This document shows positions 13,429 through 62,629 of a DNA stretch of 64,000 nucleotides, piece after piece. The DNA comes from a virus: positions 1 through 64,000 of the IMG/VR virus record IMGVR_UViG_3300020192_000010, one strand, 5' to 3'. Every line of letters starts with the position of its first letter. Positions within the stretch are counted from its first letter, which is position 1. The translations under genes and the position numbers were made by a program. The notes beneath the pieces are model-generated. The model had not been told where the DNA came from. It saw only the letters and a program-made list of their open reading frames with translations, and searched no databases.

Positions 13429-16400
13429 TCACAAACCAAGAATATTTCTCATCTTGGAAGAGTCTACGGTAATGAAATTGTTATTGAACCCAGCTTTTTT
13501 AAGGTGAACAGTTATCTGTACCTTTGTCGAAAGGGTCAATTTGGTATCTGTTTCTTTTAGATGGCTGAAGTTGAGTCGTAAAACTCCGGTAGACGGATCG
13601 ATATGTACACCCATCTTGTCGTCTACTAGAACGCCTTCATAGCCATCCGTAGATAAACCTTCTAGTTCTGGGTAGAACGATTGAATCGATACGGCGAAGC
13701 GCGCCTGATTCAGAAGAAGACCTTCAGGATTTGTAATGAATGAATTATCTGCGAAACGCATTGCCGTGTAACCCAAACGAGTTGTTCCGTTACCATTGTA
13801 ATCTGCTACGAAATCGGTGAACATATTCACTACTTTTTCGTCATCAAAATCAACTGTTGGTACGTTTAGGATAATGGTTCCGACTTCATAGTCTACCTTG
13901 TAAAGCGAACCGTTTGGCGATACCAGTTCACGAGCGACAACAAGATTACCAGGAACGAAGAAATCATTACGGCCCGGATCAACCTCTGTGGTGGCTGGAT
14001 ACGTAACAGATGTCGTACCTTCGCGAGCAGCAGCGAATGTCTCGACGTCTTCGTCTTCAGAGAATACGGCCGTGACCAGCTTTACATTTGGTGATGTAGC
14101 TACCAAATCTGAACGCCATGTCAAACGCTTAGTAATTGAAAACGGTATATCCACTGAGAAGTCGTGAGCCAAAAATGTATTGTCCAAATCAGAAATGTCT
14201 GGATCAGGATGAATTACATCTGCACGATTAGATAGATTGTTTGGATAATTATCGTTACGATCAATGAAGTCTTCAAGGGTCAGAAGAAGCGTGCGGAATG
14301 TAGTTCCGACACGATTGGCGGGACTCGTCACTGCTGGGATCGGCTGAACACCCAGTACATAGTTTCCGATGTAGGTTATGTCATTACTACCAACATAACC
14401 GTCTCCGTTAATATCTGATCTAAGAATTTCAAAAATCTTATCTGTATCTCTGAAAAACTTACGAATCTGTAATGTATCGGTGTTTACGAGAGCGATTATA
14501 TCAAATGTACCGTTATTCTCATCGGATGATCCACTTAAAACAATTTGACAAGTCAAATAATTAGGAATCAAAGAGAAATTGGTTGTAAGGTCCAGGAACG
14601 TTGCCACACGGCCATCGACAGGGTCGACCGTTACTTTACCAGTACCAGATGCCACGACCGTTACGCCCTGAACGATATCGTAAGTGACGGGCGTTGCTGT
14701 AGTGAAATAATTTGTACTACTCTGATAGTCTGCAAGTGTTGGTGATAACACTAGATCTTGATCTAATAGATCAGCAGCTAGCGATGCATCCGTGTCGTCT
14801 ACAAGCCCATCCCCATTAACGTCACCATAAATCATGGTTCGTACTTCAGCGCTGGCGATACGATAAAATGTATTGGGCAGCGCCGAATTAGGGATAAACT
14901 TTGCTTCGACGAGATCGCCGTTCAACAGAGCTGTTAGCAAATGAATATTGTTATCCGGATCGTCGTTCGATTCGTTAAGCTTTATTATAGCTTTGTTCTT
15001 GAACATGCCGAAATGATAGAAACTTGACGTTACCAAGCTTGTCCCGGCGTCGATGGACTTGATATTTCTATCTTGTATCGAGCCTAGAACGAGCGGATCT
15101 CCGGCCGATTGCAGCTGAGTCAATCCGGTAGCATTTACAATGCTTACATTTGGAACTAACTGTTGTCTTGAATCGACAGGGTTACCTGTTCGCTGATCTT
15201 GAACCTCTGCACTGAATTCAGTGGAAGCTTCAAGCACGCCATAGAATGGCAGGCTGGTAGAGAACGAAAGATTGCGCAAGTAGTTGTCGACAGTGGCGCC
15301 GGTCGTCTCATCTGGAGCGGTTCTTGGTAAGAAAACGCCTTGGCCAGCATCATAAGCTTGGCCATCAGATACCTTTGCCGAATCGGTCCAAACCTGAAAC
15401 CATAAATCTTCTTCTTGAATGTCAACCCACGTTGTTCCGTTGAATATAGTTACGCGTGAATCATCAACGCGGTCGTTACCTACTGGCATTAAAAGATTGC
15501 ACTTGTTTGCCGAACCAGAACGTTTAACCGTTACGGCATAGAAATTACCTACCGTAAGGCTTCCGCTCGCAACCGGAGTATTACTAAAAACGAAATCAAC
15601 TGGTTGCAAGTACCCGTCAAGAATGACTCCATTGCTTTCAAGCGTTGAATAGTTGAAGCTAACCTGTGCAAGCGGTAGGTTGGATGGTGAAAAGTCGATA
15701 GCCAATTCTGGCGTGATCTCTGACGGAGACGACACAGAAGATTGAAGAGCATAGATACTTACGACAAGGTCTCCGCTCCATGTCAAATCTGAAGGGGTAA
15801 CGGTGTTTTCTACGCCAAGGAGAAGAGATACCTTTTGAATGTTGGTCGTCTCTGCCTTGAACTTTTGCCCAAGCTGGGTCGTTACGTCGTTAACTAATAG
15901 CTTGCGAAGTTGCTTATAGCTTGTCGATACGCCAAGCGTGTCGATGTTGTAGCCAGATGCGGCAGCCTGAAGCATGGATGCGAGCGTGGCATAACCGCTA
16001 TCTAGAAAGAAATCTCTGAAAAATAGGTTTGGCTCTACATCTTGTGCCAACATGATCGTGTCACGTGATAGATAAAATGGTGACACTTCACGCACAACAA
16101 TACGACCACCAAGATTGAATGAGCGGCCCTCATCGCCTAACATATCGTTGAACAGTACAGACAAAATTTGAGTGTAGTGTTTAAACGTTACTTGTTTTTC
16201 ATTCTTGCTGAAATAGAAGGTGTCATATTGCAAATCGCCATTAAAATCCAAACCAATTACGGCTGCCTTGACTTGTTTACGGCCTGCGGCAAGCGAACCT
16301 GTTAACTCAAGTTCTAGTTGAACTCCGCTATCTTCATCTGTTGGCTGTAGCGTTGGAGCTATCGGCTTACCATCTAACGTTCCGGCTGTAAGCTGAGCTA

Positions 16401-16587
16401 CATCTGTATCAAGTAATATGCGTTGTGTTAACGACTCAGAGAGTACGCCTGTACCTATATGATTGTTAATCAAAGAGGAAGATATTTGGTCGTTATGCTC
16501 CTGCTCTGTGGTTAGATCCTCTTCACCGACTTGCTGAGAATCGAACCATACGTTTTTTAGTGCAGAAACTGGTTTTCTTTGGGTCAT
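13429..16587 (-). CDS. Large virion (baseplate-associated) protein with two dockerin-like Ca-binding loops
   Basis: 1052 aa at the end of the baseplate operon; GDVNGDGLVDDTD and SDINGDGYVGSND loops. Confidence 0.65.
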   Translation of the reverse strand: MTQRKPVSALKNVWFDSQQVGEEDLTTEQEHNDQISSSLINNHIGTGVLSESLTQRILLDTDVAQLTAGTLDGKPIAPTLQPTDEDSGVQLELELTGSLAAGRKQVKAAVIGLDFNGDLQYDTFYFSKNEKQVTFKHYTQILSVLFNDMLGDEGRSFNLGGRIVVREVSPFYLSRDTIMLAQDVEPNLFFRDFFLDSGYATLASMLQAAASGYNIDTLGVSTSYKQLRKLLVNDVTTQLGQKFKAETTNIQKVSLLLGVENTVTPSDLTWSGDLVVSIYALQSSVSSPSEITPELAIDFSPSNLPLAQVSFNYSTLESNGVILDGYLQPVDFVFSNTPVASGSLTVGNFYAVTVKRSGSANKCNLLMPVGNDRVDDSRVTIFNGTTWVDIQEEDLWFQVWTDSAKVSDGQAYDAGQGVFLPRTAPDETTGATVDNYLRNLSFSTSLPFYGVLEASTEFSAEVQDQRTGNPVDSRQQLVPNVSIVNATGLTQLQSAGDPLVLGSIQDRNIKSIDAGTSLVTSSFYHFGMFKNKAIIKLNESNDDPDNNIHLLTALLNGDLVEAKFIPNSALPNTFYRIASAEVRTMIYGDVNGDGLVDDTDASLAADLLDQDLVLSPTLADYQSSTNYFTTATPVTYDIVQGVTVVASGTGKVTVDPVDGRVATFLDLTTNFSLIPNYLTCQIVLSGSSDENNGTFDIIALVNTDTLQIRKFFRDTDKIFEILRSDINGDGYVGSNDITYIGNYVLGVQPIPAVTSPANRVGTTFRTLLLTLEDFIDRNDNYPNNLSNRADVIHPDPDISDLDNTFLAHDFSVDIPFSITKRLTWRSDLVATSPNVKLVTAVFSEDEDVETFAAAREGTTSVTYPATTEVDPGRNDFFVPGNLVVARELVSPNGSLYKVDYEVGTIILNVPTVDFDDEKVVNMFTDFVADYNGNGTTRLGYTAMRFADNSFITNPEGLLLNQARFAVSIQSFYPELEGLSTDGYEGVLVDDKMGVHIDPSTGVLRLNFSHLKETDTKLTLSTKVQITVHLKKAGFNNNFITVDSSKMRNILGL

Positions 16588-17237
16588 GTATCGGCTCTTT
16601 CACTTCTTTTATTACCATCTAATATGTTAGATTTAGAAGGATACGGTCTCAAATTTGAGAGGCTCCAGCATTTAGAAAAATTCTCATCATTAATTGATTT
16701 ATATTTCAATTTAGAATGAGGAATAATGTGGTCAACCTGCCATGTCCAAGTAGATTTGTCATTATCATTCCATTTGCTTTTTATATATTTCCCATGATTT
16801 TGCCATGTCATCCAAGGTTCAAATAATGTTTCCAAATGACACTTAAGCTCGCTCATTGTATATGGCAAAAGATTCGCTAATGTGGTGCTGATGCCTCCAC
16901 GTAATTCCTTATTTATTCTTTGGTAAAGATTGGTCTTCAATCTAAACGCGGGATCTTTTGCATAACGATTACGCACATACACTTTCTTTTTTTCATTCAA
17001 AATTTTTTTATTGTCTCTTTGGTATTTTGAATTATAATCATTACTTTGGCGGTACCTTTTGTTATTGATTTTAATTATATCTTTATTAGATTCACGATAC
17101 TTCGCATTACGTGCATTATATTTTTCTTTATTTAGAGCGTAATGCGTGCGGCTTTTTTCAAGGCAAATTTCGCATGAAGCACGATCATCACTAAAAATGC
17201 GATCAGTCCTTTTACATACACTGCACATTTTATTCAT
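16584..17237 (-). CDS. Freestanding HNH endonuclease
   Basis: CxxC N-terminus, WQVDHIIP...SNLRP...N motif; AT-rich and overlaps both neighbours. Confidence 0.82.
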   Translation of the reverse strand: MNKMCSVCKRTDRIFSDDRASCEICLEKSRTHYALNKEKYNARNAKYRESNKDIIKINNKRYRQSNDYNSKYQRDNKKILNEKKKVYVRNRYAKDPAFRLKTNLYQRINKELRGGISTTLANLLPYTMSELKCHLETLFEPWMTWQNHGKYIKSKWNDNDKSTWTWQVDHIIPHSKLKYKSINDENFSKCWSLSNLRPYPSKSNILDGNKRSERADT

Positions 17238-20200
17238 ACTCTATTGTTACCCTGCTGTTGGCCGGTTTAAGTGTTCTTATCAAAGTTTCTAGAACCTCTT
17301 TTACCTTAACAGATTGTAATATACCAAATGAATCTATTACATTGATGGAAAAATCAAATATGCCCGAGTTTTTGTTTTTAAGGAGGGCGAAATCAGTATT
17401 GAGTGTTCGCAATGAATCAAAGTCTAGTAAATATGTGGTATAAAGGTCCTCAGTGACCGGGTAAGCGGTTTCTGTGTTGGCATTGTAAGCTACGTCGATT
17501 GGCTCTCCAAATGCCGTATATGCCGGTCTAGACACGTCGCTGATGCGAAGGTTATCTATTAAACAATTAGCCAAATAGTTACCATTATAATCAGAACCGA
17601 TGTGCAATTCGTTAATCATATCAACAAACCTGATGGTCGTTATAATATTTCCCTCTCCAACGAAAGAGGAGCCGAATACAAGGTTTTGTCCGAAAAGAAG
17701 TCCAGAACCAAATAAAACGTTCCCTCGTTCAAATCCGTCGACGAACAAACGAATTTCGTCAAGTCGACGACCGCCGTTTATCTTATAAGTAACTTTAACA
17801 CGGTGCCAAGAATCTTTAGTCCAGAAGATTGGGCATCGAATCTGGTAATCAGTTCCATTGGCACGCATGTTAAATGTCAAGTATCCGTAAGGATCCTTGT
17901 AAATTGATACGCGGTCTCCGTTAAGGCCAGTAGGAATATAGCTTACGATGACGGGCGTGTTCTGGTAAGGAAGTGCGTATTGTAAATTTAGCGTTTTGCG
18001 ATCAGTATCGATCGTTCCGACTCCGAAATAGTTCTTGCCAAGGTCACCATTTGCCAATCGCACCGATACGACCTGCGATACGTTTCCAGATACTGATAGC
18101 ATTGAACGATTAGTGCTAGTTACCGTTTCTGATACATTACCTGACGCGTCGAAGTAGAATCGATACTTAGGATCGTTTGCTGTGTCTAGCAATGGAGATG
18201 CCCAGAACTCGATGCTACCCTCTTTGCGGGTATTCAATAGACCAAGGTTATCAAGTTTGATGCCACGATCTTTTATGATGACACTCTTGTCGAAATTGGT
18301 ATTAACGCTCTTGCCTGATTGCAGATAGGCGTGCTGTGCCGAGACGTAGAAATCAGCCGAATTTTCTACGTCGCCATCTTCAAGGTGCAACAGAACTAGC
18401 GACGTCGTCTTTGGGCTGATGCGTCTAAGAGCGTTATACTCGCTAGTGATCGATCCGGTGACCGTATCGGCAACTTCTCCAGTACGCGTATCAGTAAGCA
18501 TTTGTGATTCGATATGAACTTCATCGATAACGCTATTTGCCTGATTGATTAGATCGATGTCGGAGCCGAGATAAACGCTACCCTTGATTGGATCAAATTT
18601 AGCTGAAAGATATGTTGCGTAAACGATCTCGTAAAGACCGCTGGTAAGATTGTACACTTCGCCAGGTACATTTAGGTTCTCAAAATAGAACACTCCGTTT
18701 TGCAAACCGCTTCGGCTTGTCGTTGTGTTAAGCACTTCGTAGATTGTGTCGGTGAACGTCGGAACTGCTGTCGCTATCGTAACTGATAAGTGATCAGAGC
18801 TTACAGAGTCAATCTTATAATAACCAGCGCCTGGCCCAGAAAATACGTGAACGTAGTTTCCTACGTCGATAGACGAGAAATGTCCGTTTACATCGGTAAT
18901 GGTAAATCCGTTGCCGGTCAGGGTTGACCCCCACTTGACCTGATAGCTGAATTGAATCGTTGCTACCTGATCAGAATCTTCCGACTCAGTAATGATCTCT
19001 TTCTCTTTGATTCCAATGGTCATTCCGGTCTTGGCCGAATCTATCGGCTGAACTACCGCAATAATCGACGTAATTGTTTGATATCTTTGTGTAGTGTATT
19101 GTTTGCCTACAGCCGTGAAAGTCAGTGTTTCGCTAACGGCGCCGTATCCGTCCGTTCCGATGAACGATATTGTTGGTGATGTTGAAAAATCTATATTTAC
19201 ACCGCTGATATTTACTTCCAGCGTACGCCCCCAATCGCTTAGAACTGGTTGAGAAATATCTGTAGTTTTAGTGTATGTAAGAAGCGTTCCGTCGAATGCA
19301 GAATAACCATCGGTGGCTGGGTTTTGGCCAAGCGCAACGGTTGGTAGAATGACTTTTCTTATTCTTATTTCATCTAGGCTTACCGGTGCGGGAAGCCGAG
19401 TGTGCATGACGTTCGAAGCAGAGCCCCAAGCGTAGTAAGTCTGGTTGGTAGATTTGAAATTTGAGCCGAACGTTTTGATACGAACCAGATCTCCAACTTC
19501 TGCGCCGTTACGTAAAATGATAATATTGTTGTTGTTGTTATTATCCTTATCTATTTCATAGTAAGGAAGTAGTGCGCGTGTACCTGGGATTTCTGTTTCT
19601 TCGTCATTGTAAACGTAGAATGTCAGACCTGGTCCCGTTGCAGTTGGTGCCTGGTTTAGAGTTACGGACGAGCCAGATACAGCAGTTACGACGAAATGAA
19701 GCTCTGGTGACGTCTCGATTCTAACAAGGTTTCCTACAGCAACACCAAGTACATCAAAATCTGTCGATGCAGAGGTCAATACGTTTGAAGTTGCTACGAC
19801 GTTTCCGTCAGCTGCTGTGTAGATCGGATGTATCAGATACACGGCTGTGTTTGGAAAAATGTCGACGCGTGTCGATACTGGTAGTTCAGTTTTATTTACG
19901 CTGAAATTGCCTTCAGTAATGCTGAGTGGCATTGCAGTTGCTAACACTAAATCATTGCCCGATACACTCGAAACAGTATAGCCATTTTCATCAAATCCAG
20001 ATTCATCAATGAAGATGGTGTCACCTGCTAGGACTCCGGCTGCGCCGAAGTTCATGACAGCCGTGACGGTTGTGTCACCTGCTGTTGTTACGAGGTCGAT
20101 ACCCGCGACGATCGGTCTGGTGATGAGGGAAACGATTTCTTCTGGATTGATTGTTCGGAATTTTTGTCCGTAGAAGAGTGGGAAACCTTGTCCGTATCGA

Positions 20201-23200
20201 ACAATATTTGGAACTTCAAACCCGTCAATAAAGAGATGTAATTCATCTTGTTCTCCTTTACTATTTAATATCCAAGAAGCGGCTACATGATGCGTTTGGT
20301 TTGCTTTCCAATCGCTAACATCTGCGCTTATTCGATATTGTTGCTTGTTTTTATCTATGACTCGTAGATTGAAATACCCGGCCGCATCCTTAAATATAGA
20401 TACGCGGTTCTTGTTTGATTCTCCGAAGTCTAGAACGTAGTGGTTGTAATCAGAAAGGAATGTTATTCCTTGCTGTGTTTGGGTTGTGGAAAATGCAATT
20501 CTACTTAGACCGCTAGAGATTGAGTCATATCCATCAGTTGCGTAGAGCAATCGAGCATCGAAAAACTCTCCGTCTGATGTGACATTGACTCTGTAAGAAG
20601 ACGTTCCTGTAGTATCTACAATATCAAGATACCAACGATAAAAAGATCCTGTGCCGGTAGCGTATCCGTCTGTTCCGTACCCATCTCTTTCAAGGTACAC
20701 GTATACACCATCTTTATGTTTATTTGGCCTTCCCAGTGGGGAGTGGGTATCCTTTTTGGAAACTGTAAAATAAGAGTTGCCAGAGGAGTCTACTTCATAA
20801 ATAGGGTGGTATTCTCCAGCTCCGAGGAAAATCTTTTGATTTGAAATGAAACTACCGCTCTCTCTAATTATGAAAGTTAGAGTCGAATCATTATCTAAAC
20901 CGTTCCAGCGTGGTGACAACCAAGATGAGAATGTTCCTTCCTCAAGTCGCAGGTTTGATGAAAGCGGCATCGTAACCGCTTGGCCCGAGTCCTTGATAAG
21001 TAGTCCGTTGCCAAACTTACCCTTCGAAGTCGTTGGCATACCCAACGCCTTGATGCCCTGTGGATAAAGATAGCTGTTTCCCAATGACCAGTTCTCAAAG
21101 ATGCTCTCTGAAATTTCTGGATCAATATGCGTTATCGTACTTACGATTCTCGTCATCGATGCGATCGTAGGGCCTTCGACGAATGAGGAGAGCGCTGCCA
21201 GAATTGCTTCACGGTAACGTTCGCGTTCAAAGTTTTCGTCAAATACTGTAAGTAGAGGGATATCGATAAGAGAAGCGAAGTTTTTCAAAAGCGCATCACG
21301 TAACGCGCCTACACGATACGTAACAAAATATTCATCTCCTTCAGATAATGCGGAAGACTCGCGAAAATCAATTTGATTGTCGCCATATTCATAACTGACG
21401 ATTATCTCGTCAGCCAGGTAAGTATAATCAATGTAGTACTCGCCGCGATCATAATCGACCACGACTCTAGAACTAGAAGCTATGCTGAATGTAACGGTAA
21501 CGGTAACATTATCTCCATTAACTGGAGAGTTTACTCCTGGTAGTTGTAGCCGTAATGGCTCGCCTAATGTGTAAATTCCTGACCCGCTCCAAAGTGAAGC
21601 AGAGTCTGTGACACGAACGACTTCGAAAGAAATTGATATGTTCGGCGATAGATAAGTTAGATCGACTCCGGCATTGACAAAGAAATCAGGACCGTCTTGC
21701 TCTACAATCTGTAGACTGGTAACAACTTTATCAGCTACATCGAGAGACTTGTCGTCGATCGTTGTCGCGTCAAAGAAGTTAACTGGTGCTGGGTTGTTAA
21801 TAAGATCTGTGTACTCAAACAACGAGCGAACCGCTTTGATGTTGTTGGTTACACCTGGCGTAAAGACAGCGTCGATGTATGCTCCGACAGCTCCGGAAAT
21901 TATAAAATATGGCGAAGTCGGGTCGCCACCCAAATAGCGTTCATTGGCCAATTCAAATGCAGCAGGGATAACATATCCATCGGCATACGAAATGAAAGCA
22001 AATGTCTTATCTTTCGGCTGAAGAAGATTACGTCTAAAATAGATGTCGATTGGCGTAACGATGTGCGGATTCTCTAGAGAGATATACGAACGTTTATACG
22101 ACACTGTTCCGATATCGTAGTCTTGTGTAGAAGATACAGCGACGTAAATAACGCCATCAACATAATCTATTTGATAATCTCCAACAACCATTCGGTCAAT
22201 GTTGGCTTGTACCGATACGGTATCTTCAAAATACAGTTCAGTGCCAAAAATGTTGGCATTGGACAATATGGCGCTGGTGTTAAACGATGTACCGATACAG
22301 TCCTCTGTACCGCTTATGATGTTACTGCTCTCAAGTTCTATCTGGAAAACGCGCACTGAACTGGTGCTAGTAAGCTCTTGGCCAACGAAAAGAAGCTCAT
22401 TCAAAACTGATTCAAATGTAACGCGCTCTCCATTAAGCGTTTCGATATTAGGCTCTGTAGTGAACGTAAAATAAACCTTATCGTCTGACCACCTGGTTGG
22501 AGTGTATACCTGACCCTGTGTTTCGTTGTAGATTCGGAAAACGTTTGTGACGGGAGAATTTTGAACCCTTAGCGCGTTAAGGCTTGGAATGATTCCGTTA
22601 CCGATACGTTCGGTAAGAACTTCTTTGTGGATATCGGCCTTGTAATCGATTCCCGGTACCATTACATCTTGGTAGTCGAAACTGATCGTTGCAGAATTAT
22701 CGATCAACTCACGATTAGGAAGCGCGACGATATCTCCTTCATCCGAATCGTAAACGTAATCGATTAGGGGTTGGAAAGAGTGTTCGTACGTGTACGTTGC
22801 CAGAGCCGGATAGGCTCCGGTACCATCGTTCGCTGATGAGTCTCCGAAAACGTATACTGTGCCGGACTCGTAATCGATCGAGTACTCTCCGATTCGTGTT
22901 GGCAATGCCTCGAAAGAGAATGGTAATTCTGTGGCGAAAGCCTCGTGCGTTCCGGATAGAGCCGGACTTGAATTTGGATCTTGGAACTCTACGCCGCCGC
23001 TCGTTGCAAGTTCACCAGTGCTGTCGATGATAGGAAAATGTTTTAGGTTGAAAATGTTGTTAAGAGGAGCGATGACCTCTCTGGGAACATCCACACTCTT
23101 GGTTACGGTAACGCTGTTAGGACTCACTATTCGTCCAAGATTTTTGTACTTGTAAGTGATTAGCACGCTTGAGAGATTGTTGAGTGAGAATACAGGATCG

Positions 23201-49337: not shown

Positions 49338-49340
49338 GAA

Positions 49341-50354: not shown

Positions 50355-50357
50355 AAC

Positions 50358-53300
50358 TCACGCTCCGGCTACTGGATCTACTATGACCGCCGTATTTACT
50401 GTCGTGTACCCATAGTAATACTCAGTTAAAAACGTTGGATTAAATCCGGAAATTTTGTTATGCTTAATGATAAGTGTTGGGTTCTGTACAAGCAACGAGG
50501 ACGGTACGCGCATAGAAATATGAATCCAGCTTACTGTGTTTTCAGTAATGATTGCAGATCCTGAAAACATCGCCGTGCTAAACGTAGTGGCCGGACGAAC
50601 ACCGGGGACTGTTCCTATTAAGAATATTCCATTGTTCATTCCGGTAAATATGAAGCGGCACGTATTTCCTGATATGATCAAATTGTTATCTTTATCAGTA
50701 ATTGCTGTTGTATTATATACGTTACTTGGTGTAGCCTGACGCGTAAGGTAGTTGATGGCGCCGCATACGTTATTAGTAATTCTGCAGTTTATAGTAGTTA
50801 TAGCATTTCTAGTAGACGTCAGTCCTGTATTGTAATTAGAACTGATTGATATCATCTGGTTTTTATCACAGATGTTTCCATCGATCACGCAATTGGTAAG
50901 TCTGGCCGCAGTCGTGGAAGTAAGTATTGCTGCCGGAGCAGTAAACGCTATTACTGCACGTTTATCATCAGCCGCCCCTGTGTAAACAAATTTATTGTTT
51001 GATATGTTTACATTCTGTAGCGTTGACGTGTTATTTGAGTAATTGAAAACTAAGAATGGATGACGAGCCGCAACTGATGCTGTAAACTCACAATTTTTAA
51101 CTTCAATGTTCTCATTGGTATCAACTTCGCAGAACAAAGCGCCGCTTGTTGAGTTAACTAAGTTGTTGGTAGTGTATGACCCATCTGTCGATGCAACGTA
51201 TACGAATTTGATTCCATCAAACGATACATTGCTTCCTATGTTAAAAACAGTATCTCCTGACAAAGTAAACGTCGCACCGTCTCCGACAAACTTTACCAAA
51301 GTCTCGTAATCAAAAGTATATTCTTCGTCGAACGTAAAGTCGCCACGGACGCGTACCGTGTTGTTGTAGCTGGAGTTAAACTTCAGCCATGTATCAAGTG
51401 ACTCGAATGAGTCGAAGTTTCCAGAGTACTTCTCAGAAGTCCATGTAATAACTGGGGCCGATGAATCATCTTGGATGATTTTACGTGCGTCAGTAACGGT
51501 ATTGCTAAACGATACGCTGCTTATAACGTTAGAGCGCACCAACGCAATGATCGTTAGGTCTTTTCGTTTAACGGCCAAATCTGTAAACGTAGAACAATCA
51601 ATTCCATATGTAGCGGTTGTAATTGGATTGTAAACTGAGATTAAGCGCGTCGTACCAGTAGCAATATTAGAACCTAGTATGTCATAATCTGTAAGAGGTA
51701 TAATTTGAACATCGGACTTGGAGTTGATGCAAACTGCCCATGTTATTTTAGCAACTGGGGCTCCAGCATAGTATTCTTGAACAATCGGAATGCTTGCAAC
51801 GAAATTGTTTATTTCGCTAAACTTACCATTGACCAGAACGAGTCCGCCCTGAAATGTAAGCAGCATCGAGTCGGTCGTGTTGGTGCCGCTTACATAAGTA
51901 AGACCACGAACAACACCATTTTGGTGAGTGAATCGATCGCCAGCGGTAACGAAATCGATAGCCGAGTTAGAGAACTCATTCTCGCTTAGATTTCCAAACT
52001 GTCTTCCGTCACGTAGGTAAATAAGGCGATTAGATAATTCGTTATACAATACGGTGCCTAGAAAAAATACTTCTTGGTCATTCTGTAGAGATTCAAATAG
52101 ATCTATGCTAATGTCAACTGCGGCAAATGTTGCTACGGTATCGGCTAAGTCAAAAACGATGTCAATATAGTCTACGCCGGTTTCGTCGTAGAATCTGGTA
52201 ACCTGTCCTTTTTTACCAGTTACGACGGGACCTACATTAAGAACGCTACTCTTTCCTAGATAACCATCGTACACACCAGTCGTAGTGTTATACGATGTGA
52301 TTCTTAGATTAATAGATCGGATCCCACCGCTGAGGTAGCCGCGCAATTTTGTGGCGACTTTGATTAAATTTGTTTTTACAATCTGTGCGTTGCCGGTACT
52401 CAAATTGTACCGAGCGCGTTCGTGACTAAATGTATGACCGTCTGAGTCGACATAAACTTCAAACAATCGTTTGAATTTATCAGCGGAGGTTGAGTTAGCA
52501 ATGTTAAGTGCGTTGAAGCTGACCGAGTCGTCAGAGAAGTACAACTTAACTGCGATGGCTATTGTGGTGGTAGCGATGGCATTACCAGTCGCATGAACTC
52601 CGTTGTAAACCTCAATCGTTGTCTTGGTACATTCACCGCCGCATATGGTGTATGCGACATCGCTAATGATAAATCGTCCATAATCTACGTCGTTGTATTT
52701 GATATCTGTTTTGGCCAGAGTTGGTTGAACAACAATGGTTTTTCCTGGGCGCAGATCTGCCGTACGCAAATCCATCGGCACTTCATATTTAACCTTAACC
52801 GTCAACGTTGGAATAACTGTCTTAGATAACGTGGTCGCTTCCCAATAACGATCTCCGTACACGTCGGTGTACCCATCGCTAATTGCTCGTAGATTACTCC
52901 GCTCGTTACCATTAACATAATAGTTTTTGCTCTTTAGTGGAACGAAAACTCTTGTTGCCGCTTGAGACTGATTAATATTTACATACGATGTTTTGAACTG
53001 TGGGCTGGCTACGTTAGCACCAGCTACGCCGAAGCCAAACGGGTCAACCGCACCAGTCGTTGCGTCGCCAACTACGTTGTTCACAAAGATGTCTTCAATG
53101 ACATTTCCGCTTACATCGAGTGAGCCGCTTATGATTGAGAAACTTGCATTGCTGATAGAGTCAGCAAGCATGATTCCGATCTCTCCTTTATTTGAGAAGG
53201 CTACGAAACGATAGTTGTATCCCTCTCTACGGAAAGCTGAGTTGATTGACTCGACCACGCTGTCAAGAGTGTATTTGCTTGGAGTAACTCCAAGATTTCC

Positions 53301-54704
53301 CGTCACGTCAATAGCTGGTAGAATTAGTGACTTATCGAAAGGATTTCCAGTTGGGTAAAACTCAAGATACAAATTGTAGTGCTTGCGATTTAGCTTATCT
53401 GCATTGAATCCGATGCCAAGCGCTGCTGCGCCACGCGGATTAGATACCGTTACGCTTGGAATTTCTCCAAAAGAGTTGTTGGCGTGTGAAATGGCCAAAA
53501 CACCAAACTTGTTGTCACTGAATTTTGGTCTATCAATTCTCGCAACAGCGTTTGTGGTGTCGACGAGATTTCGTCCGTTAATACGTACAAGATATGAACG
53601 ATTAGGAGGATTACTTCCGTCGAATGTATAGCTTACAGAGTCGATGACGTATTGCGCTTCTACCGCACCGTAGTTGACAGTAATGATATCGCCGCTACGA
53701 ACTTGTGAGAACAAAGAATCGAAGTAGTAAGTAACGTCTGGTGTTGGAGTGAACTGAATGATATCATCTCCATTAACGTTGTTGTCTATCAGCGTCGATG
53801 CGCCTGCTGTCGCAAGGAAAGTCGTTACGCTTGTAAATGGTACAAGGCCTTGTCCGTACCCGTCGTTAGATAGGATCGTTCCACGACATGTACGAGAAAT
53901 TCCGTTTGTGTGATTGTTCTGCTGATGATTTGCATTAGCTGCGAAGCTGGCCTGGTCTACTGCATCAGCAAACCCTTGCATATCCGCAATCGTTCTTGAA
54001 AGAACAACGAATTCGTCACTGTTGACAGAAATTGCTGCGGCTGGGTGACCGTAGGTGTCACCGTTAGCGCTTGCTGTTCCGGTGGCGTTTTGGTGGTCAA
54101 CCAATTCGTCATTCATGCTGTACAAGAAGGCAGCTAAATTAGAACCACGCAAAGATCCAGTTTTGCTACGTGGGGCAACGCCACTAGGCCAAGAATATGC
54201 TCCGTCTCGGCTGTCGGTTGGCTCATCATTGATATCGATATGTGACACTACGTGACGAGCATTGGCCGAAGAAGATAAAGGATTCTGACCGTTGAGGTGC
54301 TTGAGGAAGTCCAAGCTAAGACTTGCCGTGATATCGATAATGTTATCAACGTCTGTCTGAACTGCCTGAATATCGTTGTACAGCGACTGCGTCGAATATG
54401 TAAGCGACAGCTTCGACTCAACAATACCTGCTGTAGGTGATACGTCAGCATTCGCTACGGGTCCGACTATGGCTCCAGCTGCGACAATGGCAGAGGATTT
54501 TAGTGCGCCGCTGGCCTCTATCGACACGCCAAGACGATCGAACAGTGTTCCGGCTGAACCAGATAGTGTTAGACCTAATTCTTGTTCGATGGCAAAAACA
54601 GCATCACGCAGCTGGTTAATGGCCAAGGCACCAATATCAGTAAGGTTATCATCTACTCTTATAATAGATGCGTCGTCGTCTAGTTGGTTTGGATAATTGC
54701 TCAT
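50358..54704 (-). CDS. Large tailspike/fibre with C-terminal right-handed beta-helix
   Basis: 1448 aa; SNYPNQLDD...INQLRDAVFAIEQELG attachment-type N-terminus; pectin-lyase-like repeats at the C-terminus. Confidence 0.7.
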   Translation of the reverse strand: MSNYPNQLDDDASIIRVDDNLTDIGALAINQLRDAVFAIEQELGLTLSGSAGTLFDRLGVSIEASGALKSSAIVAAGAIVGPVANADVSPTAGIVESKLSLTYSTQSLYNDIQAVQTDVDNIIDITASLSLDFLKHLNGQNPLSSSANARHVVSHIDINDEPTDSRDGAYSWPSGVAPRSKTGSLRGSNLAAFLYSMNDELVDHQNATGTASANGDTYGHPAAAISVNSDEFVVLSRTIADMQGFADAVDQASFAANANHQQNNHTNGISRTCRGTILSNDGYGQGLVPFTSVTTFLATAGASTLIDNNVNGDDIIQFTPTPDVTYYFDSLFSQVRSGDIITVNYGAVEAQYVIDSVSYTFDGSNPPNRSYLVRINGRNLVDTTNAVARIDRPKFSDNKFGVLAISHANNSFGEIPSVTVSNPRGAAALGIGFNADKLNRKHYNLYLEFYPTGNPFDKSLILPAIDVTGNLGVTPSKYTLDSVVESINSAFRREGYNYRFVAFSNKGEIGIMLADSISNASFSIISGSLDVSGNVIEDIFVNNVVGDATTGAVDPFGFGVAGANVASPQFKTSYVNINQSQAATRVFVPLKSKNYYVNGNERSNLRAISDGYTDVYGDRYWEATTLSKTVIPTLTVKVKYEVPMDLRTADLRPGKTIVVQPTLAKTDIKYNDVDYGRFIISDVAYTICGGECTKTTIEVYNGVHATGNAIATTTIAIAVKLYFSDDSVSFNALNIANSTSADKFKRLFEVYVDSDGHTFSHERARYNLSTGNAQIVKTNLIKVATKLRGYLSGGIRSINLRITSYNTTTGVYDGYLGKSSVLNVGPVVTGKKGQVTRFYDETGVDYIDIVFDLADTVATFAAVDISIDLFESLQNDQEVFFLGTVLYNELSNRLIYLRDGRQFGNLSENEFSNSAIDFVTAGDRFTHQNGVVRGLTYVSGTNTTDSMLLTFQGGLVLVNGKFSEINNFVASIPIVQEYYAGAPVAKITWAVCINSKSDVQIIPLTDYDILGSNIATGTTRLISVYNPITTATYGIDCSTFTDLAVKRKDLTIIALVRSNVISSVSFSNTVTDARKIIQDDSSAPVITWTSEKYSGNFDSFESLDTWLKFNSSYNNTVRVRGDFTFDEEYTFDYETLVKFVGDGATFTLSGDTVFNIGSNVSFDGIKFVYVASTDGSYTTNNLVNSTSGALFCEVDTNENIEVKNCEFTASVAARHPFLVFNYSNNTSTLQNVNISNNKFVYTGAADDKRAVIAFTAPAAILTSTTAARLTNCVIDGNICDKNQMISISSNYNTGLTSTRNAITTINCRITNNVCGAINYLTRQATPSNVYNTTAITDKDNNLIISGNTCRFIFTGMNNGIFLIGTVPGVRPATTFSTAMFSGSAIITENTVSWIHISMRVPSSLLVQNPTLIIKHNKISGFNPTFLTEYYYGYTTVNTAVIVDPVAGA

Positions 54705-54793
54705 ATCTCACCATGAAAGGGTTTACCAACAAATGCCGGAATACTCCCTATGCACTATAACGAAGACATTACTTTGCATAAAGTAAAATGGAT

Positions 54794-55231
54794 TTATTCA
54801 GGCAGATTATCTGGAGGAGACGGAGCCTTCGTTTGATCCGTTGTAGTTCTACGGTCTTCGCCTTCTACTGGTGTGCGCTTACGATATCCATCAAGCTTTT
54901 CTTTCAAAAAACTGCTGGCTACTCGATAAACAAGGCCACTGAGTAGTCCTGCAATGAATCCAATCATTATTCTTGAATCACGATGCTCTCCCCATCCTTC
55001 TGGATAAGGTAAACCTTTAGCAAAGGCTGTTATTAGGACGCCAGTAAATAGTGGTGAGATTGGAAGAAATAAATCGGTCCAAATTTTGGATGTCTTTGAC
55101 GCCGGAACCTTAGGGTTATCAAGAACAAATTCCGTAATTCTACGAAGAATTTCGTTGATGCCTGCGATAGCTAGGCAAAGACTAATAAATTGTAAACTGA
55201 AAAGCGCTGTTAATGATTGTTCTAGTTCCAT
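54794..55231 (-). CDS. Holin-like membrane protein
   Basis: 145 aa with three hydrophobic segments and a charged C-terminal tail. Confidence 0.55.
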   Translation of the reverse strand: MELEQSLTALFSLQFISLCLAIAGINEILRRITEFVLDNPKVPASKTSKIWTDLFLPISPLFTGVLITAFAKGLPYPEGWGEHRDSRIMIGFIAGLLSGLVYRVASSFLKEKLDGYRKRTPVEGEDRRTTTDQTKAPSPPDNLPE

Positions 55232-55275
55232 GTTAGTATCCTACCAGGATGGCCTACTAGTAGTAGTGCCGTAAA

Positions 55276-57339
55276 TTATGTCGTCTTTGCTACATGCCAT
55301 GGCCAATTTCCAGACTGCATAAATGAATTATATGCATTGGCGTTTCCGCTACCTAAACTTATAGCTGGAACAGCCTCGGTACTTTCTTTAACATCACCAA
55401 GAGTTTTAAGATAAGCTCTATTTACTGTTCTGTGAATTGATGTAACGGCCCCGGCGGTCACGGCCGTGCGGCCACCTAAAATATAAAAATCGTTTTCGCT
55501 GTACAAAGCGTTGGCACCAGCAATAGTGGTTGCTCCTGGAGAAAAATTACCTAATGATTTAAAATTAGATACACCTCCTGCCAATTCAGATATTAAACAT
55601 GCCTGTATAGTGCCGATATTTGTATATCCGGTAGATGTTCCACCTATAAGGTATAAATAATTATTGCTCATCACCATTACATGATCGGCTGACGCCGTTG
55701 CAAGAGCTGTAACTGAAATCCAATTCGTGCTTCCGCTTTCGTTAAGCTCTGTCAAAAGGCTTCGGTATACTACTGAGCTTGATGCCCCAGGAGTACCGCC
55801 AGAAATAGTCGTACATCCTCCAAACAAATAAACATAGTTACCAATCACTGCCAAACTATATCGTGACAGCGCGGTCGGGAGAGTGCTATTAGAGGTTTTC
55901 CACTGCGTAGGAGCTGTTATTGGTGCAAGAGCAACGCCATTGCCAATAACATTTCCATAATCATCGCCACCAACAACATAAATGTATCCATTATGGATGA
56001 AACATTTGTTGTGAGCTATTGAGGGACCGCCGCTTGCGGCGGCCTCTGTGATTGTGGTTGGGCTTGACACTGGTGCACTAAAAACTTTAGTCGTAAAAGT
56101 TGACGTAGCTGTAATGCCCCCAAAAAACCAAATAGTATCGTCTATGCGTACACAATTCCACCCACCAACCGGTGTTGCTAATGCGGTGGTAGTAGTGTTA
56201 AACTTTGCCGGGCCTCGACTAGAGGCGGTTGCTCCATGAAAAGAACAACTTTGTATAACGCCCGCAGTTGGTAATCCGCTAGCTACGTTATGTCCTCCGT
56301 ACATATAGTACGTATCACCTATACCTATTGAAGCGTAACCCCAACGGCCATTAGGAAGCGATCTGGTAGCAGTTGTGAATGGAGACCCAACAGCATTATC
56401 CAAATCGGCTACTGATACTTCGTATACCAATACGGAGGTTTGTCCGCCGTACACGTACAATATACCATTAATTTCTTGAACAGTTGTATTTGATCTGGCT
56501 CTCGAAGTGTTGTATGCCAAAGTGAATGTAACACCATCATTTATTGAGCTTTTGTAAATGTCATCGTTTGGTGTGCCTCCGCCATTGCCGCCGATAAGAT
56601 AAATATAGTTAGCGCTTACAAACGCGGTTCTTGATTGCGTATTGTTTGGCAAACTACCAGGATTCGTCCAAGTAAGCGGGGCGCCTATGCTTGCCTGAAA
56701 AATAAGTCCATTTTCAATGGCACCAGCTCTTCCGCCATACAAAAATAAATTGGTTGGCGTTACGGCCAATGTCATTTTTATGCATTCTGATGGAAGCACG
56801 GATCCAGAATCGGTAAATACTGTAGGCGTAGAGGTGCTGGCCGTAAGAATTTTGGCACCATTACCATCTTCCGCGCCTGATCCAAAAATGTAAATTGTGC
56901 TACCAACAACGCAAGCATTTGAGCCGCCTACCGCAAATGGCAGCGTATCAGACATCAAATTCCACGACTCTGGAAAATCTAAAGAAGCTCTCCAAATTTC
57001 AGTCGAAGTGTTTCCGTAAATATAAACGTAATTTCCAACTATTAATAGCGTCCCAGCAACGTGTGTTGTTGCGGCTTGATAATTTGCTCTGTTGCCGGTT
57101 TTTACAAGATTAGTCGGATCTGAAAGAGGTGCTTTATAAACAAGCCAACCACCGTTCGTTCCAGTATTACCTTCTAATACGTAAACATAGTCACCAGCTA
57201 TGTAACTTAAATGCTTAGTATTACTAGTTGACGCCGTTGTTAATAATTCAGTCGTAAGATTGACGTAACTAGTTTGGCCTGGAGCAGCAATCATGCTACC
57301 TTGATTTGTGTCTACAACATATTTTCCGTCATAAGTCAT
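55276..57339 (-). CDS. Kelch-repeat (probable double beta-propeller) virion protein
   Basis: About 12 repeats of YIYxxGG...W. Confidence 0.8.
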   Translation of the reverse strand: MTYDGKYVVDTNQGSMIAAPGQTSYVNLTTELLTTASTSNTKHLSYIAGDYVYVLEGNTGTNGGWLVYKAPLSDPTNLVKTGNRANYQAATTHVAGTLLIVGNYVYIYGNTSTEIWRASLDFPESWNLMSDTLPFAVGGSNACVVGSTIYIFGSGAEDGNGAKILTASTSTPTVFTDSGSVLPSECIKMTLAVTPTNLFLYGGRAGAIENGLIFQASIGAPLTWTNPGSLPNNTQSRTAFVSANYIYLIGGNGGGTPNDDIYKSSINDGVTFTLAYNTSRARSNTTVQEINGILYVYGGQTSVLVYEVSVADLDNAVGSPFTTATRSLPNGRWGYASIGIGDTYYMYGGHNVASGLPTAGVIQSCSFHGATASSRGPAKFNTTTTALATPVGGWNCVRIDDTIWFFGGITATSTFTTKVFSAPVSSPTTITEAAASGGPSIAHNKCFIHNGYIYVVGGDDYGNVIGNGVALAPITAPTQWKTSNSTLPTALSRYSLAVIGNYVYLFGGCTTISGGTPGASSSVVYRSLLTELNESGSTNWISVTALATASADHVMVMSNNYLYLIGGTSTGYTNIGTIQACLISELAGGVSNFKSLGNFSPGATTIAGANALYSENDFYILGGRTAVTAGAVTSIHRTVNRAYLKTLGDVKESTEAVPAISLGSGNANAYNSFMQSGNWPWHVAKTT

Positions 57340-57348
57340 AAAATTTCC

Positions 57349-59196: not shown

Positions 59197-59226
59197 ACAA
59201 TCTCCGTAAATTATGCTTAAATATTG

Positions 59227-60789
59227 TCAAGGCAGGATCACTTCATGTGTATGGCCCAAAGCTTCCTGAACTATGCCATCCACGACGCTGTGCGAGTGGC
59301 CCTGTGCCATCCCTGTGATTTGGTTAACATCTTCTATTCCAAACGTATCCTCATTGATAACAATTACGTGACGATGTGGAAGAATACTTGGCGCCTGAGC
59401 CAATGTTGTAAAAATCTTTGAAGGAAGCAGCTCAGTATTACGGAAAGATCTGATCTGATAAGCCGGGTCTGTCTTGCGAATTCTCTGAACCCTAAACTTC
59501 TGACCACCCATTAGACTTTGAAGCAATCTATTTCTAGTTACGCTCAATACTTCATAGCGAAATTCTTCATTGCCATCTTGGTCAAATCTGATGATGATGT
59601 CTCTGTTTTTTATTGTCGGTACCGTTAGTGTCCATACATCAAAAATGGCCTCAGATTCAAATCCAGTCTCTGTCGATTTAACTGCGTCCTCTGCTGGAGA
59701 AAACTTCACGAAAATTCTACTATCAGAACGACGTGGATTGAAATACTGTTGCCATCCAACAACAAACCCGGTTCCAAAACACTTAGTGCATCGATCATCC
59801 GGACTTTCGTTTGAAGGCAAGAAACACTTGCAACGATAACCTGTACGCTGCTTAGTCAAAAGCACAACCGGCTCACCATCTATGTTGAGCAGCATCTCTT
59901 GACGTTGATTATTTTGCTCTTGGACACTCATTCCACGAAGAGTTTGACCTACTCCGTTGTATCCATCAGCACAATATTGTTCTCCACCTATGTAACTACC
60001 AACGCATTCTCCATTTAGAAGTTGAACCGGGTCGGTTCGATGCCATCCTGCATAGTCGTAAGGTTGAAATCCGACGTTGTACTGATCGCTTGAGGTCAAA
60101 TCTACTGTAAGTATATCTTTAACAACTTGTTTGTATCCGTCTGTGACGGTGTACGGATAATGATCGATATCGATTCGACACTGGGCGTGATATACGCGCG
60201 GGTTACGCTCTTCTTCACCGATGAAGAACGTCAATGTCGGGCTCCATGTCAGCTCGCCATTGTATCCGTCCGTATTATGGATCGTGGCGGTGGTACCGTT
60301 GTAACCGCGCTCAGCTAAAGTTAATGAATTTCCAGTTACAGAACCGTATCGGATCAACTCTGTACCAGCCAGCACAACTCCAAATGCTGGGAAGTCTGTC
60401 CCGTCAATGATAGGGATTGTAGTTTGTACTTCGTCAATATCTGATGATAGTATGGTGGTTGGCAGAAGGAGAAGATCATCTTGGTACGGCACTAAAGCAG
60501 ATGTGTCTAGCACATTTTCAATATACTCAACGGCACGCACTGCGAAATAATAAACGGTACCTGGCGTAAATCCAGTGATGGTTGCCTGGTTGGTATATGT
60601 AAGGACTACAAACTTAGGGCCTTCAGAAAAGATCGTTCGCTCTGTTTCGGAAAAATATATGTGGTAAGCTATTTTGTTTGTTCTGGTTGTCGGAAATGCT
60701 GTAGCCCAACGCACAGTTATACCGTCACCATCGTTTAAAGCGATCGTTTCGGTAATGCCTGCTATGTTTGGATTAAGATAATATGACAT
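59227..60789 (-). CDS. Neck/head-closure-like protein with FN3-like N-terminus and zinc motif
   Basis: FTPGTVYYFAVRA (FN3-like), CKC...CTKCFGTG, RYEVLSV and a His-rich C-terminus. Confidence 0.55.
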   Translation of the reverse strand: MSYYLNPNIAGITETIALNDGDGITVRWATAFPTTRTNKIAYHIYFSETERTIFSEGPKFVVLTYTNQATITGFTPGTVYYFAVRAVEYIENVLDTSALVPYQDDLLLLPTTILSSDIDEVQTTIPIIDGTDFPAFGVVLAGTELIRYGSVTGNSLTLAERGYNGTTATIHNTDGYNGELTWSPTLTFFIGEEERNPRVYHAQCRIDIDHYPYTVTDGYKQVVKDILTVDLTSSDQYNVGFQPYDYAGWHRTDPVQLLNGECVGSYIGGEQYCADGYNGVGQTLRGMSVQEQNNQRQEMLLNIDGEPVVLLTKQRTGYRCKCFLPSNESPDDRCTKCFGTGFVVGWQQYFNPRRSDSRIFVKFSPAEDAVKSTETGFESEAIFDVWTLTVPTIKNRDIIIRFDQDGNEEFRYEVLSVTRNRLLQSLMGGQKFRVQRIRKTDPAYQIRSFRNTELLPSKIFTTLAQAPSILPHRHVIVINEDTFGIEDVNQITGMAQGHSHSVVDGIVQEALGHTHEVILP

Positions 60790-60801
60790 CGGTACCTTCG
60801 A

Positions 60802-61308: not shown

Positions 61309-61366
61309 CTAACAGTCTCCTTCATTCTATTATATAGCGCTTTAGTGAGGGAAAGCTCAAATAAGG

Positions 61367-62266
61367 TTAGAAGAAGCGGCGGGCTCTCAGGTGGCGAAGG
61401 CGTTGCACGTTAGGGTTGGTCGTAGTGATCGTCATCGTGCCCAAACCCTTAGGAGCTGGGCGCATAGAGTTCTTAATGTACTTTAAATTCTCGTTATACG
61501 ACGAAAGAGCTGACGAATACTGTGTCATCAGCATTTCCGATACCGTTGGTGGAACGAACGAGATGCCATTGTCAGTAATATTGAACTCTCGACCTCGTTC
61601 AATCAGAGCCTGACTGGATAGAGCGTAAAGAGTAGCTCCTTGAACCAACATATTGATGAACTGGTCTATAATGGCAGTGTCTTCGTAAGTAAAATTAGTG
61701 AAATATGGAATTTCATTAAAATTACTCAACGACATAGCGCAAAACGTAACCAATAGATCTGTAGTAAAAATATCACAATCGATGTAAGTAACGTTTCCGT
61801 TAGCGTCAATCTTCTTTGCCTTACCGCTGCTCTTCAAACGAGCGCGAAGGCCTTTGATAACCTTATCGATGTTGAATATAGCATTCTGGCTGTAGTTGAA
61901 CCCGACATCGTCGCCCAAGTGGTAATAACCATCCGTATTGATGGCTGGCATTTGAGTATTATCAACAATGAATTGAAAATTGGCTTCAATGCTGGTACCC
62001 TGAAGTGTTCCGGTCCACTTGTCGATATAAACACCTACTGGTCCGCCGATACCTACTGCGTAATCGAAACCATATCGGCCCTCTTCGACTCGATAAATAC
62101 CGGCAGACGTAGGGCCGAACGACACGAGCCCGCTAGGCAAGATTATACTGATAGTGGGATAGGCATCCAAATCTATTGGAGTGCCGGTTCCATCTTTAAA
62201 TAGTGCGCGTAACTGTACAGTGTCGGTAACTTGTACTAGCTCAGAGCGTTGACGGATTTGTGACAT
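61367..62266 (-). CDS. Neck/head-tail adaptor-like protein with Ig-like N-terminus
   Basis: Helical C-terminal half (ITDNGISF) and position in the morphogenesis cluster. Confidence 0.55.
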   Translation of the reverse strand: MSQIRQRSELVQVTDTVQLRALFKDGTGTPIDLDAYPTISIILPSGLVSFGPTSAGIYRVEEGRYGFDYAVGIGGPVGVYIDKWTGTLQGTSIEANFQFIVDNTQMPAINTDGYYHLGDDVGFNYSQNAIFNIDKVIKGLRARLKSSGKAKKIDANGNVTYIDCDIFTTDLLVTFCAMSLSNFNEIPYFTNFTYEDTAIIDQFINMLVQGATLYALSSQALIERGREFNITDNGISFVPPTVSEMLMTQYSSALSSYNENLKYIKNSMRPAPKGLGTMTITTTNPNVQRLRHLRARRFF

Positions 62267-62290
62267 AGAAGGCCCCTTGGGGTTTCCCCA

Positions 62291-62629
62291 TTAGCCGGGC
62301 GATACACTAAAATTCGCAAACGGCGCGTTAACATTTAGTTCGACGACTTCATTTTTAACAGTAGCATCCGGTTCTGTATACTCTACTATTACCACGTAAC
62401 TGCCTACGGCGGAGGCTCCGGATGGCAATTGAAATTTATACTGATAGACGCCTGTGGAAACAACAGTCATGTCCTGTGGAAACCCGGCTGCTGACGCTAG
62501 GCTTGGCATTACGACCTTGGTGATAGAAGGAACGTCATAACCATCGGTAAGAATTCCCGTAGAGGGCTCAAAAACCGAGATGGTTATCGTTGCTATTTGA
62601 CCTGGGCTATAATGTAATATTGTGTGCAT
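62291..62629 (-). CDS. Small Ig-like virion protein
   Basis: Probable start at the ATG at 62629 (MHTILHY); resembles the N-terminal domain of 61367-62266. Confidence 0.6.
   Translation of the reverse strand: MHTILHYSPGQIATITISVFEPSTGILTDGYDVPSITKVVMPSLASAAGFPQDMTVVSTGVYQYKFQLPSGASAVGSYVVIVEYTEPDATVKNEVVELNVNAPFANFSVSPG

Follow-up and report, generated by a model that had tools for sequence, protein, structure and literature searches.

Among the described systems of protein glycosylation, Campylobacter PglB recognises the sequon D/E-X-N-X-S/T, the general O-glycosylation of Bacteroidota follows the motif D-(S/T)-(A/I/L/V/M/T), and in the GtfA/GtfB system a soluble glycosyltransferase (GT) of family GT4 primes the cytoplasmic O-glycosylation of serine-rich-repeat (SRR) adhesins, which variable co-encoded transferases then extend. 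Tyrosine can also be an O-glycosylation acceptor, as in the S-layer proteins of Paenibacillus alvei (SpaA) and Thermoanaerobacter, where the linkers are rhamnose-rich (PMC2943079). In phages, the mycobacteriophages Che8, Corndog and Myrna are described as glycosylating their virions with phage-encoded glycosyltransferases, and the glycans have been shown experimentally to sit on C-terminal extensions of capsid and tail-tube subunits (Freeman et al. 2023, cited in PMC12619734). Here we describe a tripeptide, Asp-Gly-Tyr (DGY), that is scattered over the tail, neck and fibre proteins of an uncultured phage, IMGVR_UViG_3300020192_000010, together with an adjoining sugar cassette that may encode its reader. 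The stretch analysed, hereafter the window, is 64,000 nucleotides long and forms the first 64 kb of a 94.9-kb IMG/VR contig; this contig is placed at 22% completeness by CheckV and its source is therefore a huge phage.

We conclude that DGY is kept under selection, in that order of residues, in surface loops of tail, neck and fibre proteins, and we think the chances are somewhat better than even that something, whether an enzyme or a partner, reads it. The most far-reaching reading, at a probability of roughly 0.3, is that DGY may be the sequon of a cytoplasmic tyrosine O-glycosylation in which a soluble GT4 coats the tails and fibres of a globally distributed huge-phage clade with lineage-variable glycans.

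The DGY excess in the window and its clade

An exact count of the window finds 22 DGY in 10 open reading frames (ORFs), all on the minus strand, hereafter (-), and all inside 13429-62662; nine of the 22 are TDGY. A sequence-only reading of the same DNA had counted about 21 in nine proteins and had missed the site in an ORF of 145 amino acids (aa), but its other counts hold, including the nine TDGY, the tandem RDGYGTDGY at 20662-20685 and the TDGY near 20527 (20527-20535). Its rough expectation of 3-4 DGY, with about five DGF as a control, comes out on calculation from per-protein composition as 2.87, giving an excess of 7.7x (Poisson P 6.7e-13), with six DGF in the structural set. DGY ranks first of 8000 tripeptides in the window, the runner-up having a P of 5e-5, and 1000 within-protein shuffles gave a mean of 2.98 and a maximum of 11. 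A first-order Markov expectation, also per protein, is 6.0 (P 4e-7), which is conservative because the DGY sites themselves raise the DG and GY counts. All three codons vary (GAT/GAC, all four GGN, TAT/TAC) and the signal therefore lies in the protein and is not a DNA motif. There is no DGY in the 15 ORFs at 229-13390 (replication, tubulin and GT genes), nor in either HNH-like ORF, the tube, the tape measure or the hub-side proteins of the window; the sequence-only reading had likewise listed the replication, tubulin, GT, HNH, tube and tape-measure proteins as free of it. The remaining 31 kb of the contig (~10,000 aa) contains one.

The same excess is found in relatives. Three whole relative records (G001, G002 and G003), with sheaths 53-65% identical and a GC content of 29-42%, carry 21 DGY against 5.6 expected, 34 against 5.1 and 94 against 17.6, and in each it is the first- or near-first-ranked tripeptide. 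TGA/TAA stops appear to interrupt several structural genes of G003, the record with 29% GC, in which the tripeptides with the strongest enrichment are GPT/PTG, in collagen-like repeats. In a larger pool of 80 IMG/VR loci around the neck gene (471,335 aa) there are 1173 DGY against 86.3 expected, or 13.6x, and all 80 of these neck-bearing loci are DGY-rich; the window, at 7.7x, is a comparatively weak member of the clade, which consists of uncultured huge phages with genomes of 335-480 kb. The enrichment over shuffled proteins and in relatives that the sequence-only reading had put forward as a check is thus present in both (22 against 2.87, and 13.6x), and it goes beyond a bias towards DG turns, as NGY (0.78x), DGF (1.21x), DGW (1.09x) and EGY (0.95x) all stand near 1x across the pool. 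Order matters as well, with DYG at 0.9x and GDY at 1.0x; the permutations of DGY together with EGY, NGY, DAY, DGF, DGW and DGH all lie at 0.7-1.4x except for YDG and GYD, which are raised because of overlapping tandem DGYDGY.

Outside the clade the figures are much lower. Unrelated phages overall have 18 DGY against 10.6 expected (~1.7x), the highest being the tail-head region of T4, where 7-10 against 2.7 are distributed among proteins unrelated to one another, UvsW among them. Phages in general may therefore have a DGY bias of about 1.7x, far below the clade value. No cultured relative was found, the best sheath matches (Eggerthella phage LE2-3 and Bacillus phage G) reaching 30% identity over the C-terminus only, and no publication on DGY in phages came up in a literature search.

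Four genomes of 29-44% GC have DGY in one and the same set of orthologous proteins, the carriers in every genome being the two fibre giants, the sheath, the 260-aa, 1448-aa, neck, 299-aa and 123-aa proteins. In the orthologous sets compared, the tube, tape measure, hub-side and major capsid proteins and all replication proteins have none, and in the non-virion proteins of the clade pool DGY is neither enriched nor depleted (18 against 16.1 expected). The description of the carriers as outward-facing virion proteins was therefore too broad, because the major capsid protein is without DGY and the tag is one of tail, neck and fibres. The major head protein gene (phrog_2522) lies beyond the window, at contig 74893-75897; adjoining it is a gene for a 221-aa protein (contig 76139-76804 (-)) with a DGY kept in G001 and G002, which may be the only head-associated carrier.

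Carrier proteins and the fate of their sites

The carriers have no detectable family or flanking-sequence similarity to one another, as the sequence-only reading had supposed when it called them non-homologous. Of the names that it gave them, sheath, baseplate wedge and Ig-like fold stand, terminator, adaptor and spike are given by gene order only, and neck is weakly supported. Strict conservation amid changing flanks is seen for sites in the sheath, 260-aa, neck and 299-aa proteins, and for a single site in both the 1448-aa and the 1052-aa protein. The 913-aa tail sheath (44088-46829 (-)) has two DGYG, at aa 173 (46305-46313) and aa 197 (46233-46241); sheath families match residues 710-910 only, and both sites lie in an N-terminal extra region outside the sheath core and are kept in G001 and G002. 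Upstream of the sheath, a 260-aa protein that is a terminator by position (47508-48290 (-)) has one DGYGN at aa 122 (47919-47927), kept in 4/4 aligned genomes. The 299-aa protein, an adaptor by position (61367-62266 (-)), has one site at aa 112 (61925-61933), which is kept in G001 and G002, and 56 of its 68 orthologues have at least one DGY.

The richest comparison comes from the 520-aa neck or collar-fibre protein (59227-60789 (-)), which has an N-terminal FN3 domain, a Cys4 cluster, C-terminal HxH repeats and a weak fold match to the neck proteins of phage 812. Its three sites are at aa 174 (60262-60270), aa 217 (60133-60141) and aa 275 (59959-59967). The protein has more than 800 homologues, and in 120 of them there are five consensus DGY sites, 78-93% conserved, with a mean of 4.75 per protein; the protein of the window keeps three of the five and has lost two, and one homologue, P0017, has none of them. 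In an AlphaFold2 (AF2) model one of the sites of the window lies in a loop of a confident region and the other two in segments with a predicted local distance difference test score (pLDDT) below 50. Apart from DGY, the family has an invariant Cys4 cluster (C320, C322, C334 and C337) and three invariant HxH pairs near the C-terminus (H472/474, H498/500 and H513/515), residues that resemble the metal sites of trimeric phage fibres.

The smallest carrier is the 123-aa Ig-like protein (62291-62662 (-)), whose AF2 model (pLDDT 85.6) is a seven-strand Ig-like sandwich with Ig V/I-set fold matches. The loop that joins strands 2 and 3 of this model contains the single DGY, at aa 40 (62537-62545); in relatives this loop and two others hold up to five inserted DGY, for example TDGYYTDGYY-DGYPIDGY. 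A position in loops, which the sequence-only reading had expected from predicted structures, is therefore borne out for this site and for one neck site, the other two neck sites falling in low-confidence segments.

In the big fibres the sites are mostly lineage-specific, with unrelated residues at the same positions of orthologues, and new copies are often tandem (DGYEDGYDDGY, DGYDGYVDGY). The 2301-aa fibre-type protein (17230-24135 (-)) has six DGY, at aa 719 (21973-21981), 1151 (20677-20685), 1156 (20662-20670), 1201 (20527-20535), 1609 (19303-19311) and 1662 (19144-19152), of which only aa 1151 (in G003) and aa 1156 (in G001) are shared, each with a single relative; its orthologues have DGY at many other positions and in tandem runs. 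The 1448-aa spike or fibre protein (50358-54704 (-)) has three, at aa 281 (53856-53864), aa 610 (52869-52877) and aa 813 (52260-52268), the first kept in four genomes and the other two turning over, and 71 orthologues have between 0 and 9 DGY each with a mode of 5-6. The 1052-aa fibre-type protein (13429-16587 (-)), whose gene is directly upstream of the GT cassette, has sites at aa 324 (15610-15618), aa 729 (14395-14403) and aa 981 (13639-13647); the C-terminal one is kept in G001, G002 and G003, and that at aa 729 lies inside a dockerin-like loop, DINGDGYVGSND. Dockerin-type Ca2+-binding loop motifs (PF00404; DINGDGYVGSND) occur in this protein at aa 587-603 and 725-736. A general Ca2+ loop (dockerin/EF-hand, DxNxDGxV...D) was considered as an explanation of DGY and rejected, as it fits one site only and there is no enrichment of D/N at -2/-4 over 168 sites.

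Two further carriers complete the set. The 1281-aa baseplate wedge protein (J-like, with a phrog_6 match; 24135-27980 (-)) has one DGY at aa 800 (25575-25583) that is not kept in orthologues, and the 145-aa ORF (54794-55231 (-)) has one at aa 114 (54884-54892) that is probably a chance occurrence, DGY being present in 0/60 of its orthologues.

Flanking residues over the 168 sites are nearly free, with T at -1 raised 2.0x, G at +1 2.1x and P at +3 2.7x; T at -1 is only twofold across relatives (9/22 in the window) and the core is therefore DGY and not TDGY. Taken together, the observations support a DGY that behaves as a short tag: order-specific, located in loops, repeatedly gained and tandem.

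The sugar cassette and its neighbourhood

Nearly all genes of the window are on the minus strand. First come the replication genes, for DnaB, a helicase like UvsW and a tubulin like TubZ; the sugar cassette is next, with genes for RmlB, a protein of 272 aa, one of 332 aa with a membrane anchor, and the transferases GT2 and GT4; then follows a long myovirus tail-neck module that encodes the fibre-type giants, the baseplate wedge proteins, the tape measure, the tube and the sheath. The cassette occupies 7956-12670 and borders on the fibre gene at 13429, an adjacency that is kept in 20 genomes. Its candidate reader or writer of DGY is a GT4/GT1-type glycosyltransferase of 358 aa (11594-12670 (-); Pfam Glyco_transf_4 and Glycos_transf_1). 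The matches of this protein to PF13439, PF00534 and PF13692 are at or just over the cut-offs, those of an orthologue from a sister clade likewise, and both glutamates (E249, E257) of its EX7E motif, which in retaining GT4 enzymes lies in the C-terminal domain of the GT-B fold, are unchanged across five orthologues that come from the two clades and have 34-53% identity. The other members are a GT2 glycosyltransferase of 236 aa (10879-11589 (-); PF00535), the 272-aa protein (8912-9730 (-)), which is remotely GT2-like with a weak match to the GT2 orthologue of G002, a 319-aa dTDP-glucose 4,6-dehydratase, RmlB (7956-8915 (-); TIGR01181, 366.9 bits against a cut-off of 365.1), and the 332-aa protein (9732-10730 (-)), which has no family match and one N-terminal membrane helix (Kyte-Doolittle 3.12 over residues 7-25). 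An atlas search with this last protein turned up viral clusters without a name and nothing else.

The distribution of these genes was surveyed in fifteen large genomes of the clade (clade A), thirteen of them at least 92% complete. GT4 is matched in all fifteen, without exception at that end of the tail module where the fibre genes lie and at a distance of 42-54 kb from the neck gene; RmlB is likewise matched in 15/15. GT2 is matched in twelve. The three genomes without it are complete and have a DGY excess of 8-12x all the same, and it is these three that lack the 272-aa protein as well (12/15); neither GT2 nor the 272-aa protein can therefore be the DGY reader. The 332-aa protein, in 14/15 and often far from the cassette, is probably not an obligate member of it. 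In the sister clade B, with genomes of ~335 kb, a sheath 38% identical and the same gene order, a GT4 orthologue directly follows the last fibre gene in 5/5 large genomes, and after it come six more genes of GT1/GT4 type, one of which is a fusion with a methyltransferase; the DGY excess there is weaker, ~4x per 80 kb, and is concentrated on the two fibre proteins adjoining GT4. The proposal that the whole GT4/GT2/GT2/RmlB cassette acts at DGY sites thus survives for GT4, which is conserved and syntenic in 20/20, and fails for GT2 and the 272-aa protein, which are dispensable. The co-occurrence of DGY enrichment with the cassette is as expected for GT4, found in all 20 DGY-enriched large genomes, but one-sided, there being no DGY-poor genome among them.

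Neither the glycosyltransferases nor RmlB have a membrane helix, and the acceptor should therefore be cytoplasmic. No multi-span membrane protein, as an oligosaccharyltransferase would be, is present in the cassette, the rest of the genome not having been searched for GT-C or Wzy_C, and a family search of five complete genomes for Sulfotransfer_3, Fic and Pkinase found none. The glycosylation of hydroxymethyl bases in DNA was considered as a universal role of GT4, and is argued against by the presence of thymidylate-synthase/hydroxymethylase genes in only two of the five. Remote homologues of GT4, at 23% identity, occur in 115 Streptomyces phages.

Several ORFs of the window look like newcomers to the locus. 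The 112-aa ORF at 7568-7906 (-), which separates the gene for tubulin from that for RmlB, is a TnpB remnant: its match to RNA-guided TnpB endonucleases (NF040570, E 1.6e-23) covers their C-terminal end only. It has no counterpart in G001-G003. Two paralogous ORFs of the HNH/endonuclease-VII-like type (phrog_1035), at 16584-17237 (-) and 46870-47511 (-), lie within the tail module, where one separates the two fibre giants and the other adjoins the sheath; neither is matched in G001, which suggests mobile homing endonucleases. Three more ORFs within the conserved tail-neck module (340, 337 and 687 aa, at 48315-50354 and 55276-57339 (-)) are without DGY and without a family match, are absent from all three of G001, G002 and G003, and look like lineage-specific insertions.

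Readings of the motif and relation to known systems

On the reading that we favour, DGY would most likely mark the sites at which the tail is modified during its assembly by an enzyme that the phage encodes. The soluble GT4 beside the fibre genes would be the leading candidate for that enzyme. It might start a glycan with one sugar on the tyrosine, perhaps a 6-deoxyhexose supplied through the phage RmlB, and the lineage-variable transferases nearby could then extend it; a conserved first enzyme with variable neighbours fits a locus of the primer-plus-extender type. We infer in this chain that the motif is read, that the reader is GT4, that the acceptor is tyrosine and that the product is a glycan, and GT4-primed glycosylation at DGY, leaving the rest of the chain aside, is itself tentative, a proposal to which we give somewhat less than even odds.

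A number of observations weigh against it. GT4 is universal in the genomes examined and its presence therefore discriminates nothing, and no DGY-poor relative was seen among the genomes inspected. DGY is undepleted in the non-virion proteins of the pool, where a promiscuous enzyme that reads a tripeptide might cause depletion, and the major capsid protein, which is also exposed, has none. Many sites in the core proteins are strictly conserved, as structural residues would be, and some of the substitutions are conservative (NGY, DGF). T4 has its mild excess and is a phage not known to glycosylate virion proteins. In the genome G012 DGY stands at 17x even though a TGA, which may be a sequencing error, interrupts the match to GT4, and the Streptomyces phages with the 23%-identical GT4 homologue show no DGY excess (2 against 2.0 expected in Mildred21), so that as a model they are uninformative.

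Some of the same facts would suit an intrinsic structural or assembly motif that is never modified, either a tight turn (Asp cap, Gly and an aromatic anchor) or a subunit contact, the cassette then serving host-envelope or DNA glycans. The sheath, terminator, neck and adaptor sites are strictly kept across orthologues of 43-65% identity, often as strand-DGYG-strand, two conserved neck sites are in segments that AF2 cannot place in the monomer, as interface elements would be, and one site is within the dockerin-like Ca2+ loop; the mild T4 excess and the lack of depletion elsewhere in the proteome point the same way. Such a motif is nevertheless hard to square with the near-1x values of its turn equivalents (NGY 0.78x, DGF 1.2x, DGW 1.1x, EGY 0.95x) beside 13.6x for DGY, a comparison on which a generic Asx-Gly beta-turn was also rejected. 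Copies that recur every 3-6 residues in the tandem runs cannot each form a hairpin, the variable fibres have gained the motif independently dozens of times at positions that are not homologous, and the flanking residues are almost free; we consider the structural explanation possible in principle but unlikely.

It is more doubtful that the DGY loops are binding elements of the virion, rich in Tyr, Asp and Gly like a paratope and displayed on Ig-like, FN3 and fibre domains, with copy number selected for avidity towards host surface glycans, mucus, mineral particles or metal ions. DGY does expand in the loops of the Ig-like domain in the manner of complementarity-determining regions, is concentrated on fibres and the FN3-bearing neck/collar proteins, and varies strongly in copy number among lineages as receptor-binding features do; adhesion, however, depends on composition and not order, yet only the ordered DGY is enriched (DYG 0.9x, GDY 1.0x), and the conserved sites in the sheath and the terminator-position protein are not in adhesins. 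A docking site for a decoration or cement protein, or for a fibre-assembly chaperone that recognises the tripeptide on many tail components, would explain a motif common to non-homologous tail proteins and absent from the internal tube and tape measure, and a short linear binding motif could occur in many copies and turn over as DGY does. We regard this as quite improbable, as no candidate partner was identified, three residues with free flanks give little binding energy, and four or five copies arrayed in a single loop fit poorly with stoichiometric docking. D, G, T and Y abound in fibre proteins and some occurrences are tandem, but the chance that the excess is an artefact of composition, dipeptide bias, paralogous repeats or domains, or a DNA-level signal is negligible, with the per-protein composition and first-order Markov expectations far exceeded, no shared domain in the unrelated flanks, varying codons, and recurrence of the excess from 29 to 44% GC.

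If DGY is a modification tag, then an environmental clade of huge phages decorates its tail surface by a rule that can be read from sequence, with a bearing on host recognition, on the evasion of host defences or grazers, and on the stability of the particle. As a glycosylation sequon it would be the first to be defined for phages, a tag of three residues transferable to other proteins, and with its enzyme a minimal pair for glycoengineering. If DGY is unmodified, a 14-fold, order-specific excess on non-homologous proteins would point to an unrecognised structural or binding code in tails. In either case the question comes down to a single enzyme, GT4, and a single small protein, the Ig-like domain of 123 aa.

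Set beside the known systems, the tag resembles the PglB and Bacteroidota sequons in being a very short motif with an acidic residue beside a hydroxyl or amide acceptor, scattered over unrelated surface proteins; those sequons are used by membrane oligosaccharyltransferases outside the cytoplasm on Asn or Ser/Thr, whereas the candidates here are soluble, assembly is cytoplasmic and the residue is Tyr. The GtfA/GtfB system is alike in that a soluble GT4 puts the first sugar on a repetitive cytoplasmic acceptor and variable neighbours extend it, but its acceptors are Ser/Thr in the long SRR tracts of bacterial adhesins, and no sequence relationship was detected beyond the GT4 family. With the mycobacteriophage system, as far as it is described in the source cited, the locus has in common soluble phage glycosyltransferases beside structural genes and virion proteins as the proposed acceptors; it differs in that the capsid and tube are untagged here, and in that DGY is an internal loop tripeptide on tail, neck and fibres which is known from sequence alone (Freeman et al. 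2023, cited in PMC12619734). In the S-layer system the glycan is built on a lipid carrier and moved by a membrane O-oligosaccharyltransferase, of which there is none in the cassette here, and no sequon has been defined; it is alike in having a tyrosine acceptor on a self-assembling surface protein, a dTDP-sugar pathway (RmlB) and enzymes of the GT4 family (PMC2943079).

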